Shown: piece by piece, positions 1,151-7,723 of the stretch
Numbering within the stretch: the first letter of the stretch is position 1
How the letters are laid out: each line of letters opens with the position of its first letter
Assembly: GCA_000004985.1 (NCBI GenBank)
Contig: GG739113.1
Strand: one strand, 5' to 3'
DNA length: 7,723 bases
From: Naegleria gruberi
Taxonomy: Eukaryota
Program-made: the position numbers and the translations under genes
The notes under the pieces: model-generated
Seen by the model: only the letters and a program-made list of their open reading frames with translations
Database searches by the model: none
Told to the model about the DNA's origin: nothing

Positions 1151-4100
1151 NNNNNNNNNNNNNNNNNNNNNNNNNNNNNNNNNNNNNNNNNNNNNNNNNN
1201 NNNNNNNNNNNNNNNNNNNNNNNNNNNNNNNNNNNNNNNNNNNNNNNNNNNNNNNNNNNNNNNNNNNNNNNNNNNNNNNNNNNNNNNNNNNNNNNNNNNN
1301 NNNNNNNNNNNNNNNNNNNNNNNNNNNNNNNNNNNNNNNNNNNNNNNNNNNNNNNNNNNNNNNNNNNNNNNNNNNNNNNNNNNNNNNNNNNNNNNNNNNN
1401 NNNNNNNNNNNNNNNNNNNNNNNNNNNNNNNNNNNNNNNNNNNNNNNNNNNNNNNNNNNNNNNNNNNNNNNNNNNNNNNNNNNNNNNNNNNNNNNNNNNN
1501 NNNNNNNNNNNNNNNNNNNNNNNNNNNNNNNNNNNNNNNNNNNNNNNNNNNNNNNNNNNNNNNNNNNNNNNNNNNNNNNNNNNNNNNNNNNNNNNNNNNN
1601 NNNNNNNNNNNNNNNNNNNNNNNNNNNNNNNNNNNNNNNNNNNNNNNNNNNNNNNNNNNNNNNNNNNNNNNNNNNNNNNNNNNNNNNNNNNNNNNNNNNN
1701 NNNNNNNNNNNNNNNNNNNNNNNNNNNNNNNNNNNNNNNNNNNNNNNNNNNNNNNNNNNNNNNNNNNNNNNNNNNNNNNNNNNNNNNNNNNNNNNNNNNN
1801 NNNNNNNNNNNNNNNNNNNNNNNNNNNNNNNNNNNNNNNNNNNNNNNNNNNNNNNNNNNNNNNNNNNNNNNNNNNNNNNNNNNNNNNNNNNNNNNNNNNN
1901 NNNNNNNNNNNNNNNNNNNNNNNNNNNNNNNNNNNNNNNNNNNNNNNNNNNNNNNNNNNNNNNNNNNNNNNNNNNNNNNNNNNNNNNNNNNNNNNNNNNN
2001 NNNNNNNNNNNNNNNNNNNNNNNNNNNNNNNNNNNNNNNNNNNNNNNNNNNNNNNNNNNNNNNNNNNNNNNNNNNNNNNNNNNNNNNNNNNNNNNNNNNN
2101 NNNNNNNNNNNNNNNNNNNNNNNNNNNNNNNNNNNNNNNNNNNNNNNNNNNNNNNNNNNNNNNNNNNNNNNNNNNNNNNNNNNNNNNNNNNNNNNNNNNN
2201 NNNNNNNNNNNNNNNNNNNNNNNNNNNNNNNNNNNNNNNNNNNNNNNNNNNNNNNNNNNNNNNNNNNNNNNNNNNNNNNNNNNNNNNNNNNNNNNNNNNN
2301 NNNNNNNNNNNNNNNNNNNNNNNNNNNNNNNNNNNNNNNNNNNNNNNNNNNNNNNNNNNNNNNNNNNNNNNNNNNNNNNNNNNNNNNNNNNNNNNNNNNN
2401 NNNNNNNNNNNNNNNNNNNNNNNNNNNNNNNNNNNNNNNNNNNNNNNNNNNNNNNNNNNNNNNNNNNNNNNNNNNNNNNNNNNNNNNNNNNNNNNNNNNN
2501 NNNNNNNNNNNNNNNNNNNNNNNNNNNNNNNNNNNNNNNNNNNNNNNNNNNNNNNNNNNNNNNNNNNNNNNNNNNNNNNNNNNNNNNNNNNNNNNNNNNN
2601 NNNNNNNNNNNNNNNNNNNNNNNNNNNNNNNNNNNNNNNNNNNNNNNNNNNNNNNNNNNNNNNNNNNNNNNNNNNNNNNNNNNNNNNNNNNNNNNNNNNN
2701 NNNNNNNNNNNNNNNNNNNNNNNNNNNNNNNNNNNNNNNNNNNNNNNNNNNNNNNNNNNNNNNNNNNNNNNNNNNNNNNNNNNNNNNNNNNNNNNNNNNN
2801 NNNNNNNNNNNNNNNNNNNNNNNNNNNNNNNNNNNNNNNNNNNNNNNNNNNNNNNNNNNNNNNNNNNNNNNNNNNNNNNNNNNNNNNNNNNNNNNNNNNN
2901 NNNNNNNNNNNNNNNNNNNNNNNNNNNNNNNNNNNNNNNNNNNNNNNNNNNNNNNNNNNNNNNNNNNNNNNNNNNNNNNNNNNNNNNNNNNNNNNNNNNN
3001 NNNNNNNNNNNNNNNNNNNNNNNNNNNNNNNNNNNNNNNNNNNNNNNNNNNNNNNNNNNNNNNNNNNNNNNNNNNNNNNNNNNNNNNNNNNNNNNNNNNN
3101 NNNNNNNNNNNNNNNNNNNNNNNNNNNNNNNNNNNNNNNNNNNNNNNNNNNNNNNNNNNNNNNNNNNNNNNNNNNNNNNNNNNNNNNNNNNNNNNNNNNN
3201 NNNNNNNNNNNNNNNNNNNNNNNNNNNNNNNNNNNNNNNNNNNNNNNNNNNNNNNNNNNNNNNNNNNNNNNNNNNNNNNNNNNNNNNNNNNNNNNNNNNN
3301 NNNNNNNNNNNNNNNNNNNNNNNNNNNNNNNNNNNNNNNNNNNNNNNNNNNNNNNNNNNNNNNNNNNNNNNNNNNNNNNNNNNNNNNNNNNNNNNNNNNN
3401 NNNNNNNNNNNNNNNNNNNNNNNNNNNNNNNNNNNNNNNNNNNNNNNNNNNNNNNNNNNNNNNNNNNNNNNNNNNNNNNNNNNNNNNNNNNNNNNNNNNN
3501 NNNNNNNNNNNNNNNNNNNNNNNNNNNNNNNNNNNNNNNNNNNNNNNNNNNNNNNNNNNNNNNNNNNNNNNNNNNNNNNNNNNNNNNNNNNNNNNNNNNN
3601 NNNNNNNNNNNNNNNNNNNNNNNNNNNNNNNNNNNNNNNNNNNNNNNNNNNNNNNNNNNNNNNNNNNNNNNNNNNNNNNNNNNNNNNNNNNNNNNNNNNN
3701 NNNNNNNNNNNNNNNNNNNNNNNNNNNNNNNNNNNNNNNNNNNNNNNNNNNNNNNNNNNNNNNNNNNNNNNNNNNNNNNNNNNNNNNNNNNNNNNNNNNN
3801 NNNNNNNNNNNNNNNNNNNNNNNNNNNNNNNNNNNNNNNNNNNNNNNNNNNNNNNNNNNNNNNNNNNNNNNNNNNNNNNNNNNNNNNNNNNNNNNNNNNN
3901 NNNNNNNNNNNNNNNNNNNNNNNNNNNNNNNNNNNNNNNNNNNNNNNNNNNNNNNNNNNNNNNNNNNNNNNNNNNNNNNNNNNNNNNNNNNNNNNNNNNN
4001 NNNNNNNNNNNNNNNNNNNNNNNNNNNNNNNNNNNNNNNNNNNNNNNNNNNNNNNNNNNNNNNNNNNNNNNNNNNNNNNNNNNNNNNNNNNNNNNNNNNN

Positions 4101-6059
4101 NNNNNNNNNNNNNNNNNNNNNNNNNNNNNNNNNNNNNNNNNNNNNNNNNNNNNNNNNNNNNNNNNNNNNNNNNNNNNNNNNNNNNNNNNNNNNNNNNNNN
4201 NNNNNNNNNNNNNNNNNNNNNNNNNNNNNNNNNNNNNNNNNNNNNNNNNNNNNNNNNNNNNNNNNNNNNNNNNNNNNNNNNNNNNNNNNNNNNNNNNNNN
4301 NNNNNNNNNNNNNNNNNNNNNNNNNNNNNNNNNNNNNNNNNNNNNNNNNNNNNNNNNNNNNNNNNNNNNNNNNNNNNNNNNNNNNNNNNNNNNNNNNNNN
4401 NNNNNNNNNNNNNNNNNNNNNNNNNNNNNNNNNNNNNNNNNNNNNNNNNNNNNNNNNNNNNNNNNNNNNNNNNNNNNNNNNNNNNNNNNNNNNNNNNNNN
4501 NNNNNNNNNNNNNNNNNNNNNNNNNNNNNNNNNNNNNNNNNNNNNNNNNNNNNNNNNNNNNNNNNNNNNNNNNNNNNNNNNNNNNNNNNNNNNNNNNNNN
4601 NNNNNNNNNNNNNNNNNNNNNNNNNNNNNNNNNNNNNNNNNNNNNNNNNNNNNNNNNNNNNNNNNNNNNNNNNNNNNNNNNNNNNNNNNNNNNNNNNNNN
4701 NNNNNNNNNNNNNNNNNNNNNNNNNNNNNNNNNNNNNNNNNNNNNNNNNNNNNNNNNNNNNNNNNNNNNNNNNNNNNNNNNNNNNNNNNNNNNNNNNNNN
4801 NNNNNNNNNNNNNNNNNNNNNNNNNNNNNNNNNNNNNNNNNNNNNNNNNNNNNNNNNNNNNNNNNNNNNNNNNNNNNNNNNNNNNNNNNNNNNNNNNNNN
4901 NNNNNNNNNNNNNNNNNNNNNNNNNNNNNNNNNNNNNNNNNNNNNNNNNNNNNNNNNNNNNNNNNNNNNNNNNNNNNNNNNNNNNNNNNNNNNNNNNNNN
5001 NNNNNNNNNNNNNNNNNNNNNNNNNNNNNNNNNNNNNNNNNNNNNNNNNNNNNNNNNNNNNNNNNNNNNNNNNNNNNNNNNNNNNNNNNNNNNNNNNNNN
5101 NNNNNNNNNNNNNNNNNNNNNNNNNNNNNNNNNNNNNNNNNNNNNNNNNNNNNNNNNNNNNNNNNNNNNNNNNNNNNNNNNNNNNNNNNNNNNNNNNNNN
5201 NNNNNNNNNNNNNNNNNNNNNNNNNNNNNNNNNNNNNNNNNNNNNNNNNNNNNNNNNNNNNNNNNNNNNNNNNNNNNNNNNNNNNNNNNNNNNNNNNNNN
5301 NNNNNNNNNNNNNNNNNNNNNNNNNNNNNNNNNNNNNNNNNNNNNNNNNNNNNNNNNNNNNNNNNNNNNNNNNNNNNNNNNNNNNNNNNNNNNNNNNNNN
5401 NNNNNNNNNNNNNNNNNNNNNNNNNNNNNNNNNNNNNNNNNNNNNNNNNNNNNNNNNNNNNNNNNNNNNNNNNNNNNNNNNNNNNNNNNNNNNNNNNNNN
5501 NNNNNNNNNNNNNNNNNNNNNNNNNNNNNNNNNNNNNNNNNNNNNNNNNNNNNNNNNNNNNNNNNNNNNNNNNNNNNNNNNNNNNNNNNNNNNNNNNNNN
5601 NNNNNNNNNNNNNNNNNNNNNNNNNNNNNNNNNNNNNNNNNNNNNNNNNNNNNNNNNNNNNNNNNNNNNNNNNNNNNNNNNNNNNNNNNNNNNNNNNNNN
5701 NNNNNNNNNNNNNNNNNNNNNNNNNNNNNNNNNNNNNNNNNNNNNNNNNNNNNNNNNNNNNNNNNNNNNNNNNNNNNNNNNNNNNNNNNNNNNNNNNNNN
5801 NNNNNNNNNNNNNNNNNNNNNNNNNNNNNNNNNNNNNNNNNNNNNNNNNNNNNNNNNNNNNNNNNNNNNNNNNNNNNNNNNNNNNNNNNNNNNNNNNNNN
5901 NNNNNNNNNNNNNNNNNNNNNNNNNNNNNNNNNNNNNNNNNNNNNNNNNNNNNNNNNNNNNNNNNNNNNNNNNNNNNNNNNNNNNNNNNNNNNNNNNNNN
6001 NNNNNNNNNNNNNNNNNNNNNNNNNNNNNNNNNNNNNNNNNNNNNNNNNNNNNNNNNNN
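1151..6059. other. run of 4909 N (scaffold gap of estimated size, or masked sequence); content cannot be assessed
   Basis: Uninterrupted N characters. The three more-than-1600-aa ORFs in the track (1038-6074, 1087-6081, 1115-6136 minus) exist only because N translates to X. Confidence 0.99.
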
Positions 6060-6079
6060 TTTAAAAGAAAATAGTGTCT

Positions 6080-6084
6080 AAAAA
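6080..6084 (-). terminator. T5 run (AAAAA on the plus strand) 11 nt downstream of the tRNA-Gly 3' end; candidate pol III terminator
   Basis: The minus strand reads ...TCGACGCA TCAGCTTATAA TTTTT. Its position and composition fit a pol III terminator of the interrupted tRNA gene. Confidence 0.4.
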
Positions 6085-6095
6085 TTATAAGCTGA

Positions 6096-6115
6096 TGCGT
6101 CGACCGGGAATTGAA
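6096..6115 (-). tRNA. 3' portion of an interrupted tRNA-Gly(GCC): T-loop, 3' half of the T-stem, 3' half of the acceptor stem, and discriminator A
   Basis: The reverse complement is TTCAATT-CCCGG-TCGACGC-A. TCGACGC pairs perfectly with the acceptor 5' half GCGTCGA found at 7484-7490 on the minus strand, and CCCGG pairs with the T-stem CCGGG at 7441-7445 on the minus strand. Confidence 0.8.
6108..6115. repeat. left copy of the 8-bp direct repeat GAATTGAA (target-site duplication in the tRNA T-loop)
   Basis: The identical octamer recurs at 7432-7439. Each copy supplies the same T-loop nucleotides (TTCAATTC) to one tRNA fragment. Confidence 0.75.
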
Positions 6116-6140
6116 ATTTCCTTTTTTGGAATTCATTTAA

Positions 6141-6251
6141 CTTTTAATTTTATGATGAAATTATGAATTTTAATATTATTCATGATGTGAAACATCATGT
6201 TGAATTCTGTTCATTATTTTTAATTCATGATGTGAAACATCATGTTGAATT
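6141..6251 (+). repeat. tandem repeat: three copies of a ~45-bp unit (TTTTTAATTCATGATGTGAAACATCATGTTGAATT). The first copy is shortened. Copies 2 and 3 each carry a perfect hairpin palindrome, CATGATG-TGAAA-CATCATG.
   Basis: Identical 29-mers occur at 6178-6206 and 6223-6251, and a shorter variant at 6141-6171. The palindromes lie at 6181-6199 and 6226-6244 (7-bp stems, 5-nt loop). Confidence 0.7.
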
Positions 6252-6287
6252 ATTAACAAATGTTGTTCTTCAATTTTTAATTGAATG

Positions 6288-6333
6288 TTGGAAATATCGG
6301 AAATATTGGAAAGTTGGAAATAAAAGTTGGAAG
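6288..6333 (+). repeat. degenerate microsatellite of about five or six octamers: TTGGAAAT, TCGGAAAT, TTGGAAAG, TTGGAAAT, TTGGAAG
   Basis: Seen directly in GTTGGAAATATCGGAAATATTGGAAAGTTGGAAATAAAAGTTGGAAG. Confidence 0.6.
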
Positions 6334-6336
6334 TTA

Positions 6337-6377
6337 GGTAACGGGTTTTGGAATTACCTAATGTGGAAATTGAATTC
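6337..6377 (+). repeat. dispersed motif copy B: GGTAACGGGTTTTGGAATTACCTAATGTGGAAATTGAATTC
   Basis: Alignable to copies at 6704-6731 and 7358-7395, and to the tRNA-insertion junction at 6104-6122. The shared core is AACGG(G)-W4-G(R)AATT(M)CC...AAATTGA. Confidence 0.5.
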
Positions 6378-6446
6378 AATTTTGAAATTGAATAAAAGTG
6401 AATTGTTTCAATAAATTTAAAAAACAAGTATTATTTTAAAATTGTA

Positions 6447-6704
6447 TTGAATGATTTAAGTAACACATATTTTGATAAGAATGAAATTATTCAATATAAA
6501 ATTGAAATTATGCCATCAAATATTATTCAACAATATTCTAAACGAAAGTTTCTTGTTAGAAAAGATAGTCAAAAGAACTCAAGATTTATTACATATCAAC
6601 CTGACGCTCAATCACCATCAAAGAAAACAAAGAAGAATAACATTATTGAAAGTGATATTGAAGATTTCGATTGCAATATTAAAGATATTGATGATTGGGT
6701 ATAG
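6447..6704 (+). CDS. doubtful 85-codon ORF (Lys-rich, acidic C-terminus, SPSKKTKK NLS-like patch) inside the insertion
   Basis: ATG to TAG with no stops, which is unlikely by chance in 70% AT DNA. However, the region is purine-rich and a second overlapping 92-codon ORF is open in another frame, so the absence of stops may be compositional. No recognisable domain. Confidence 0.2.
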   Translation: MNDLSNTYFDKNEIIQYKIEIMPSNIIQQYSKRKFLVRKDSQKNSRFITYQPDAQSPSKKTKKNNIIESDIEDFDCNIKDIDDWV

Positions 6705-6731
6705 GGGAACGGAATTTCCTAATTGGGAATG
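6704..6731 (+). repeat. dispersed motif copy A: GGGGAACGGAATTTCCTAATTGGGAATG, which abuts the stop codon of the 85-codon ORF
   Basis: Same family as 6337-6377 and 7358-7395. It also aligns with the junction sequence CCGGGAATTGAAATTTCCTTTTTTGGAATTCAT (6104-6136). Confidence 0.5.
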
Positions 6732-6853
6732 TCATCACACAATAAATTAAATTTATTATTTATTCATTGATGTTCACAAACTGTGAATTAACACATTACA
6801 TGATGAAACAATTCAAACATTTACTCAAACTTTAAACCTTAACATTAACCATC

Positions 6854-6872
6854 GGGTAACGGATTTTAATAC
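6854..6872 (+). repeat. shorter motif copy C: GGGTAACGGATTTTAATAC
   Basis: Shares GGTAACGG plus an A/T tract with copies A, B and D. Weaker than the others. Confidence 0.3.
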
Positions 6873-6890
6873 ATGTACTAGTATGTTGAT

Positions 6891-6904
6891 AATTGGTCGA
6901 CGCA
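6891..6904 (+). pseudogene. tRNA-Gly 3'-end-like fragment in the opposite orientation (AATT-GGTCGACGCA; the CCC of the T-stem is missing), inside the insertion
   Basis: The GC-rich 10-mer GGTCGACGCA is identical to the last 10 nt of the reconstituted tRNA and is preceded by the T-loop AATT. It is very unlikely by chance in an AT-rich context, though no BLAST was possible. Confidence 0.4.
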
Positions 6905-6918
6905 CAGAAATTTAAATA

Positions 6919-7313
6919 CAGCACGTTTACTTCAAATTTGACGCGTTTTTTGAAAGAAAATAAATTATTTAGAAAAAATTTTGTTGTTCTTCTGCTGTCA
7001 AATCCAAAATAAGCATTTCAATAGAACAACACCTAACCACTCGTTCTTACTCATTTCTACATATTTTTGAGAATGCTGCCACCCCAAGGGGTATGTCAAT
7101 GCAAGGATTCATAATTTGAAGTCAGATTTCAAAACTACCTTAATTCCATCGAGAAATTAGCATTTTGTTGAATAAAATATTATCGTTACAGATTCTTTTC
7201 AAATGAAGTTGAGTTTACTTGCCAAATCAAAATTGAAAGATGAAATACTTTAAATTTTAAAAAAAACAATTTTAATTTCCCCAAATCTTGTCAAACTTGA
7301 AGTAAACGTGCTG
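6919..7313. mobile_element. nested 395-bp MITE-like element with 24-bp terminal inverted repeats (CAGCACGTTTACTTCAARTTTGAC, 1 mismatch), flanked on both sides by TA (6917-6918 and 7314-7315); Tc1/mariner-like signature
   Basis: Left terminal inverted repeat at 6919-6942; right terminal inverted repeat at 7290-7313, which is the exact reverse complement apart from one A/G difference. The inverted repeat stops precisely at the TA dinucleotides. The interior is AT-rich and non-coding. Confidence 0.5.
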
Positions 7314-7357
7314 TAAACAGAATTAACAAGAATAAAAGCAAAATCCTACATAGAGTT

Positions 7358-7395
7358 GGAGAACGGGAAATGAAATTCCCACAAATTAAATTGAG
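7358..7395 (+). repeat. dispersed motif copy D: GGAGAACGGGAAATGAAATTCCCACAAATTAAATTGAG, containing the near-palindrome GGGAAATGAAATTCCC
   Basis: It matches 14 of 16 positions of the junction sequence GGGAATTGAAATTTCC (6106-6121) and aligns along its length with copy B. Confidence 0.5.
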
Positions 7396-7431
7396 AAGCA
7401 ACACAATCACAATAATTCATACTATCAAAAT

Positions 7432-7439
7432 GAATTGAA
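7432..7439. repeat. right copy of the 8-bp direct repeat GAATTGAA (target-site duplication)
   Basis: Identical to 6108-6115. This is the point where the tRNA 5' fragment stops matching tRNA sequence (7431 is T where the tRNA requires G on the plus strand). Confidence 0.75.
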
Positions 7440-7490
7440 CCCGGGTCACGGCGATGGCAACGCCGTATTCCACCACTAAACCATCGACGC
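7432..7490 (-). tRNA. 5' portion (about nt 1-61) of the interrupted tRNA-Gly(GCC): acceptor 5' half, D-arm, anticodon arm with GCC anticodon, variable loop, T-stem 5' half and T-loop
   Basis: The reverse complement is GCGTCGATGGTTTAGTGGTGGAATACGGCGTTGCCATCGCCGTGACCCGGGTTCAATTC. The anticodon stem CGGCG/CGCCG is perfect around the loop TTGCCAT (anticodon GCC). An A-box TGGTTTAGTGG is present, and there is an AT-rich TATA-like upstream flank (7491-7540 on the minus strand). Confidence 0.85.
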
Positions 7491-7723
7491 TTCTTAGTCT
7501 ATCAAATATAATAATAATAGATAGTGTAATTTAATAAACTGTCATCAATGAAGTGTGAACCAATGAATGGAACGCCACATTACCAAAAAAAAATATCAAC
7601 CCTAAACGGTGTATTTATCGTTTCAACATGCAGCCAAATTTTTCAACAAGAACAAAAAACAATAATTTATCACCAACAAGAATATAATGAGAATGATAAA
7701 TCAAGTTAATAGTAATAATGAAA

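Follow-up and report, generated by a model that had tools for sequence, protein, structure and literature searches.

A tRNA-Gly(GCC) gene of Naegleria gruberi split in its T-loop by a 1.3-kb repeat element flanked by a perfect 8-bp duplication

The window analysed here is a complete 7,723-bp scaffold of Naegleria gruberi (GG739113.1, assembly GCA_000004985.1), in which two contigs are joined across a gap. The right-hand contig, 1,664 bp long (6060-7723), carries on its minus strand a tRNA-Gly(GCC) gene in two pieces, separated by an insert of 1,316 bp. An earlier reading of the letters alone (the sequence-only reading below) had proposed that the gene was split in its T-loop by an insertion with a perfect 8-bp target-site duplication, and direct inspection of the locus confirmed this. 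The features on which the argument rests are the following, with RNA polymerase III abbreviated to Pol III and miniature inverted-repeat transposable element to MITE.

1151 to 6059, no strand: assembly gap of 4,909 N joining the two contigs; its right edge lies 36 bp from the split tRNA gene
6080 to 6084, minus strand (read 6084 to 6080): T5 run 11 nt beyond the tRNA 3' end, likely where Pol III originally terminated
6096 to 6115, minus strand: 3' fragment of tRNA-Gly(GCC), 20 nt, made up of TTCAATTC, CCGG, TCGACGC and the discriminator A (direct read)
6108 to 6115, no strand: left copy of the target-site duplication, GAATTGAA on the plus strand (direct read)
6116 to 7431, no strand: inserted element, 1,316 bp, 27% G+C, interrupted by a MITE and belonging to a dispersed repeat (Pfam, homologue searches, a paralogous copy and a metagenome relative)
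7432 to 7439, no strand: right copy of the target-site duplication (direct read)
7432 to 7490, minus strand: 5' fragment of tRNA-Gly(GCC), 59 nt (direct read, and the 5' part of the 71-nt cloverleaf called by ARAGORN)

The 5' fragment (7490 to 7432; GCGTCGATGGTTTAGTGGTGGAATACGGCGTTGCCATCGCCGTGACCCGGGTTCAATTC) starts with GCGTCGATGG and ends with GGGTTCAATTC, and it contains the 5' strand of the acceptor stem, the D arm with the A box, the anticodon arm, the variable loop, the 5' strand of the T stem and the T-loop, with one copy of the repeated octamer at its end. The other copy forms the start of the 3' fragment (6115 to 6096; TTCAATTCCCGGTCGACGCA). The 20 nt given for the latter in the sequence-only reading were correct, and the former, put there at about 61 nt, turned out to have 59. 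When positions 6116-7439 were deleted, which was the check proposed in that reading, ARAGORN called a tRNA-Gly(gcc) of 71 nt with fully paired acceptor (7 bp), anticodon, and T (5 bp) stems. From the intact window it returned only a degenerate structure at 7420-7491 with mispaired acceptor and T stems, and an Rfam cmscan of the window gave no tRNA at E≤1. The 12 nt past the octamer (CCGGTCGACGCA) are G+C-rich in a region of 27% G+C and are exactly the bases that the 5' fragment needs to complete its T stem and acceptor stem, so a chance match of two tRNA halves is excluded. The T5 run expected 11 nt downstream was likewise found in place; runs of this kind serve as terminators of Pol III transcription.

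The octamer shared by the two fragments, TTCAATTC in the tRNA sense and GAATTGAA on the plus strand, is exactly 8 bp long with no extension on either side. It is A+T-rich and takes in positions 54-60 of the T-loop together with the base that opens the 3' strand of the T stem. An insertion did occur within the body of the tRNA gene, in the T-loop and B box, and its 8-bp duplication is perfect. It divides the B box: the A box and a near-complete B box (GGTTCAATTCa) are retained in the 5' fragment, and ATTTTG of the element follows directly (7426-7439). Should the polymerase still be recruited, the transcript is predicted to stop after about 64 nt at ATTTTG. The locus is now a tRNA pseudogene.

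We then determined what the insert consists of. Besides the motifs described further below, it contains the following features.

6178 to 6251, plus strand: tandem duplication, two perfect 29-nt copies 45 bp apart, each with the hairpin CATGATG-TGAAA-CATCATG
6402 to 6704, plus strand: open frame resembling NAEGRDRAFT_66102, 98% amino acid identity over 85 aa
6895 to 6904, plus strand: GGTCGACGCA, the same sequence as the 3'-terminal 10 nt of the tRNA, in the opposite orientation
6919 to 7313, no strand: nested Tc1/mariner-type MITE, 395 bp, with TA at 6917-6918 and 7314-7315

Pfam searches with all open reading frames (ORFs) of the insert gave nothing above noise, and the six-frame concatenation of the split-tRNA contig (1,600 aa) had no homologue among 5.8 billion proteins, other than for frame 6402-6704. 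Since no coding capacity is recognisable, the insert is non-autonomous. The protein matched by that frame, NAEGRDRAFT_66102 (XP_002678484.1), has 100 aa and no Pfam domain and is encoded on a 507,294-bp N. gruberi scaffold; its start codon is lost in the window. The frame is probably not a functional gene, because a 204-bp deletion in the metagenome relative described next destroys it, and the annotated NAEGRDRAFT_66102 "gene" itself sits inside a copy of the repeat and is probably an ORF of transposon origin, not a gene of the host. Judged by this match, the sequence of the insert is present at at least two places in the N. gruberi genome and belongs to a dispersed repeat family.

The metagenome relative (L005) is a 559-bp contig in ENA (k127_78230 of ERZ929261 / ERR1078381, project PRJEB11402), which was found through a 44-aa ORF (P0003) in an exhaustive HMMER search with the NAEGRDRAFT_66102 protein as the query. 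At the DNA level it matches 6265-6918 and 7314-7350 of the window, at identities that range overall from 91 to 97%, and its segments correspond to the window as follows.

L005 7 to 127: window 6276 to 6403, 91% identity
Absent from L005: window 6404 to 6607, a 204-bp deletion
L005 123 to 343: window 6608 to 6825, 93% identity
L005 388 to 494: inverted copy of window 6689 to 6791, a second inverted-repeat arm that the window copy has lost
L005 496 to 525: window 6889 to 6918, 97% identity
L005 524 to 559: window 7314 to 7350, 95% identity

The insertions and deletions that distinguish the two sequences are of the type seen between decaying transposon copies. Within L005 there is a near-perfect internal inverted repeat (205-264 and 436-493) whose arms, 29 and 18 nt long, are each 100% identical; the family may have it as a foldback feature, or it may be one more nested inverted-repeat element.

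At one place L005 also preserves an empty site: the equivalent of position 6918 is joined straight to that of 7314, with a single TA. The 395-bp segment that occupies this site in the window is bounded by 24-nt terminal inverted repeats (TIRs) that start with CAG (TIR CAGCACGTTTACTTCAARTTTGAC; consensus CAGCACGTTTACTTCAA(A/G)TTTGAC) and that, together with the TA, form a 26-nt inverted repeat with 96% identity. By these marks it is a Tc1/mariner-type MITE, which would have entered the window copy after the arrival of the element itself. If the MITE and the insertions and deletions are discounted, the element amounts to about 0.9-1.1 kb of noncoding, A+T-rich DNA.

The same contig bears on the question of whether the split gene could be an assembly artefact, created when junctions from different loci or reads were merged on a small contig beside a gap. 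The scaffold is tiny and the contig has only 1,664 bp, a Sanger read would not span the repetitive insert, and the gap is 36 bp away. Against this, L005 was assembled independently and is collinear with the interior of the insert from about 6265 to about 7350, so that a chimeric join within the insert is unlikely to judge from the alignment, and each junction lies less than 150 bp from DNA that is contiguous in L005. Moreover, the tRNA halves are complementary and share an exact octamer, and even two source loci would mean insertions at the same site. The sequence-only reading had named assembly joins next to the gap as a possible source of error; we regard such an artefact as most improbable.

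Next, we considered the ends of the element, of which the first ~50 bp run from ATTTCCTTTTTTGGAATTC... and the last ~50 bp to ...ATTCATACTATCAAAAT. A small palindromic motif, ATTWCC-N6-GGAAW, occurs three times in the insert (at 6116, 6353, and 6714), always on the plus strand, and base 1 of the insert is also base 1 of its first copy.

6116 to 6132, plus strand: left terminus, motif copy 1, ATTTCC-TTTTTT-GGAAT (motif count)
6353 to 6370, plus strand: motif copy 2, ATTACC-TAATGT-GGAAAT, conserved in L005
6714 to 6730, plus strand: motif copy 3, ATTTCC-TAATTG-GGAAT, conserved in L005
7403 to 7431, minus strand: right terminus, reading inward ATTTTG-ATAGTA-TGAAT..., the terminal motif in inverted and degenerate form

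None of 5,000 Markov-1 simulations of the contig reached three copies of the motif, a pattern that was picked post hoc; the statistic comes from simulation on the contig alone, as a shuffle control on the whole window is invalid, its shuffles being diluted by the N run. The motif may be a binding site for a transposase and is taken here as a candidate for one. The two termini match in inverted orientation at 16 of 29 positions, which makes a weak TIR, and 2.4% of random pairs from the interior were equally similar (empirical p ~0.024). A second candidate, AACGG as an Ac-like subterminal hexamer, was rejected because its enrichment was within chance.

A separate observation concerns 7361-7380 (GAACGGGAAATGAAATTCCC), where 17 of 20 positions match the left junction GACCGGGAATTGAAATTTCC (6102-6121, which joins the T arm of the tRNA to the 6 nt that begin the insert). 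This look-alike may reflect target mimicry or chance.

Neither end of the insert (...CAAAAT and, as reverse complement, ...AAAAAAGGAAAT) shows long terminal direct repeats, TG...CA ends, or a poly(A) or A-rich tail. These ends speak against a retroelement, whether a target-primed one of the non-LTR or short interspersed (SINE) type or a solo long terminal repeat (LTR), and an oversized tRNA intron has been weighed with it. A solo or full LTR was rejected since the ends are ATTT...AAAT without long direct repeats, the duplication measures 8 bp instead of 4-6 bp, and the gene itself is interrupted. For non-LTR elements and SINEs, target-primed insertion does produce duplications of variable length; they were rejected nevertheless, as neither end has a poly(A) or simple-repeat tail and Pfam found no remnant of reverse transcriptase (RT), endonuclease, gag, or integrase in the ORFs of the insert. 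The sequence TGCGTCGACC (minus strand, 6904 to 6895) is complementary to the 3' end of the tRNA-Gly and might pass for a primer-binding site, but the TGG expected for CCA is missing from it, L005 carries it in mutated form, and such a match is within what chance yields, one of at least 10 nt to the tRNA arising in 6% of simulations (p = 0.06). On the plus strand the same decamer, GGTCGACGCA, has in L005 the counterpart GGTCGACACA, with one change; it was accordingly rejected as the remnant of a second tRNA or of a primer-binding site and, by this comparison, belongs to the element family and is no leftover of the local tRNA. A tRNA intron, which would be confined to its own gene and cut out at a bulge-helix-bulge, was also rejected, as a 1.3-kb dispersed repeat with a nested MITE and a flanking 8-bp direct repeat is not expected of one. 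This whole group of explanations is scarcely credible to us. The sequence-only reading had likewise set the insert apart from Ty1/Ty3-type elements, and rightly so, given the lack of LTRs and of TG...CA ends, the 8-bp duplication, and the position inside the gene. Its comparison with yeast was beside the point, the host being N. gruberi: a flanking gene is 100% identical to a predicted protein of that species.

An 8-bp duplication is a usual signature of several DDE cut-and-paste superfamilies, and terminal motifs that recur subterminally as binding sites are usual in cut-and-paste elements. In the literature a duplication of this length is described as typical of the hAT, P, Merlin, and some Mutator-like superfamilies (PMC3706591). 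We think it probable, though well short of certain, that the insert is an old, decayed, non-autonomous cut-and-paste DNA transposon that was mobilised in trans by a transposase, whose class we infer to be DDE, and that inserted into the tRNA-Gly(GCC) gene. This class II reading is favoured because the 8-bp duplication is clean, the terminal motif is repeated subterminally and the termini are weakly inverted, the DNA is noncoding and A+T-rich, the copies differ by deletions, and a MITE is nested in one of them. The transposase would have cut the two strands of the T-loop, in the B box, with a stagger of 8 bp and joined the ends of the element to the target, and repair of the gaps would have left TTCAATTC in two copies. 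In the course of later decay, the element would have lost one arm of its internal inverted repeat, gained the small tandem duplication, and received the MITE.

Several points weigh against a DDE transposon. No transposase gene or autonomous partner was seen in the Pfam search of the insert ORFs or in the six-frame homologue search. The TIR is weak and lacks the YARNG start of the hAT type, and the three clear copies of the motif all have the same orientation. The termini of the element are fixed by the duplication alone, L005 stopping short of both of them. The copies documented in the NEG-M genome are only two, so that a one-off duplicative event is conceivable. Finally, the octamer nearly coincides with the 7-nt T-loop, and a random placement in a tRNA gene would take in a whole loop in about 6% of cases. 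The T-loop is, in addition, a classic crossover position of tyrosine integrases.

This last circumstance raises the possibility that the element entered with the help of a tyrosine recombinase, Crypton-like or resembling prokaryotic integrases, the octamer being the crossover core shared by a circular element and the T-loop. The repeat consists of the 7-nt T-loop plus one base between symmetric T stems, a geometry of loop and stem that tyrosine integrases use in prokaryotic tRNA genes; a core of 8 bp fits FLP-type spacing, and the element lacks good TIRs. However, the Pfam and six-frame searches found no recombinase gene in the insert, and the tRNA 3' end is not restored by the element. The attP that can be reconstructed (...GGAAAT TTCAATTC ATTTTG...) has A+T-rich arms, unlike the tRNA arms CCGGG and CCGG, while one enzyme should bind similar arms. 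We know of no eukaryotic Crypton aimed at tRNA genes, and overall consider entry by a recombinase very unlikely.

A one-off duplicative insertion, in which about 0.9 kb of the NAEGRDRAFT_66102 locus served as the template to mend a staggered break, with the MITE arriving later, would account for there being just two documented copies in the NEG-M genome, and tRNA genes are known in general as fragile sites and sites of replication pausing. We give it very little credence: a clean 8-bp duplication without filler or microhomology is a signature of transposition, the insert starts exactly at a motif that is repeated within it, and L005 differs by the insertions and deletions that decaying transposon copies show.

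Under the favoured transposon reading, it can be asked whether the T-loop was hit by chance or by design. The default, and a plausible one, is an untargeted insertion that was tolerated in a multicopy tRNA gene. Flanks are visible for a single copy. The alternative is an element from a target-specific lineage that aims at the T-loop or B box of tRNA-Gly(GCC) with a strategy like that of Dada, either as a divergent Dada or as a new lineage, and whose transposase would recognise a target resembling the element's own end motif. Dada elements have family-specific insertion sites in tRNA, U1, U6, and 5S genes; they lack TIRs, carry subterminal repeats that echo the target, and occur also in protists, including Perkinsus marinus with a family in tRNA-Gly (PMC3706591, PMC8869645). 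The element in N. gruberi shares with them the position inside a multicopy small RNA gene and the want of a strong TIR, and some Dada duplications appear as 8 bp (PMC3706591). Its duplication and the T-loop have nearly the same extent. Where the duplication ends on its 3' side, the target reads ATTCCC across the boundary, like the ATTWCC half-site of the element terminus, and the left junction GACCGGGAATTGAAATTTCC has its 17/20 look-alike at 7361-7380. For a possible end/target echo of the Dada type, the observations are the weak TIR, the half-site-like target, and this look-alike; no matching pair at equal distance was found.

Other facts oppose targeting. Apart from there being a single flanked copy, the duplications of Dada are of 6-7 bp and G+C-rich (GCGCAA, TAGCTC, TGGCGG), in contrast to the A+T-rich 8-mer found here. 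Naegleria is mentioned in neither PMC3706591 nor PMC8869645, and Table 1 of the former, a BLAST survey of eukaryotic genomic and expressed sequence tag databases, has no Naegleria family. With tRNA genes at about 0.05-0.1% of a 41-Mb genome and about a thousand transposon copies, a rough estimate gives about one untargeted hit, and a first-stage scan such as the one that brought up this locus selects exactly such cases. A target-specific lineage is, in our judgement, unlikely, though not negligibly so. The element is not filed under Dada because its duplication differs, the transposase is absent from the insert, and Naegleria figures in neither paper. The most specific form of the idea, an undescribed Naegleria DNA transposon lineage that is specific for the T-loop or B box of tRNA-Gly(GCC), makes 8-bp duplications, and has in the ATTCCC of the T arm a mimic of ATTWCC-N6-GGAAW, we hold to be doubtful. 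If true, DNA transposons would have taken multicopy small RNA genes as safe havens a second time, independently of Dada, and for the first time in Heterolobosea. Few DNA transposons are target-specific, with Dada as the sole established superfamily, and should other copies of the family also lie in T-loops of tRNA-Gly genes, such a lineage would interest both workers on transposon evolution and developers of safe-harbour integration tools.

Further copies or an empty site were also sought directly. The junction 20-mer had four matches among metagenome contigs, all of them chance matches to unrelated contigs of 41-66% G+C without a tRNA, and the element and tRNA patterns matched nothing in viral and prokaryotic genome collections. 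Exact-protein look-ups (P0001, P0002, four window ORFs) brought nothing on record, and a literature search on Naegleria transposons tied to tRNA genes or on the metagenome project PRJEB11402 found nothing relevant.

Two further features lie on the left-hand contig. Positions 1-250 hold the 3' end of a host gene that runs off the start of the window. The ORF at 519-1016 (P0001) is the flanking gene referred to above; it is 100% identical to the predicted N. gruberi protein NAEGRDRAFT_76734 (XP_002668353.1), which has 166 aa and no Pfam domain and, in a word-indexed search, no homologue outside N. gruberi. No second copy of this ORF was found, and therefore the scaffold is not simply an allele of the NAEGRDRAFT_66102 locus.

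As it stands, the locus documents a transposon-made tRNA pseudogene in N. gruberi, together with a stretch of an uncharacterised non-autonomous repeat family and the Tc1/mariner MITE nested in it. Its use is in annotation, and it is not surprising. The sequence-only reading had held insertion inside the gene body with an 8-bp duplication to be atypical and to point to a different, possibly undescribed, element or mechanism. The element does differ from Ty and, as far as determined, its family is uncharacterised; it behaves like a non-autonomous DNA transposon that makes 8-bp duplications, and in-gene insertion into tRNA genes was already known. Being atypical for Ty does not imply an undescribed mechanism, because 8-bp duplications are ordinary in hAT, P, Merlin, and some Mutator-like elements and Dada is known inside tRNA and snRNA genes.

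Compared with known systems, the element shares with Ty1/Ty3 and with TRE and DGLT-A of Dictyostelium only the tie to a Pol III-transcribed tRNA gene. Those elements insert up- or downstream of the gene and not inside it, make duplications of 4-6 bp (LTR elements) or of variable length, and carry LTRs or poly(A) as well as RT, none of which is found in the insert. With prokaryotic integrative elements and Cryptons it has in common the repeat on a tRNA loop between symmetric stems and the poor TIRs; it differs from them in having no recombinase, no similarity of the arms, and no restoration of the tRNA 3' end. The nested segment at 6919-7313 resembles Stowaway-like Tc1/mariner MITEs in the TA duplication, the 24-nt TIRs starting with CAG, the size of 395 bp, and the lack of coding sequence, and it shows no notable difference from them. 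With Dada the inserted element has several things in common: both are eukaryotic DNA elements that sit within multicopy genes for small RNAs and made a short duplication there, clear TIRs are missing, and the ends of the inserted element, too, may echo the target. Dada, however, makes its shorter G+C-rich duplications where here an A+T-rich 8-mer in the T-loop was duplicated, and it encodes a large DDE transposase (DDE plus DxxH, with CCCC and CCHC zinc fingers), for which the insert ORFs gave no counterpart in the Pfam and six-frame searches. From hAT, P, and Mutator-like non-autonomous elements it departs in the very weak TIR (16/29), the single orientation of the motif, and the lack of a linked transposase. 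As regards hAT in particular, the duplication has the expected 8 bp, whereas the ends are ATTTCC... and, as reverse complement, ATTTTG... in place of YARNG, and the BED finger, DDE, and hATC domains of a hAT transposase were not among the Pfam results for the ORFs of the window copy. With this same group it nonetheless shares the 8-bp duplication, the size of about 1 kb, the A+T-rich noncoding sequence, the terminal motif repeated subterminally, the internal deletions, and the nested MITEs.

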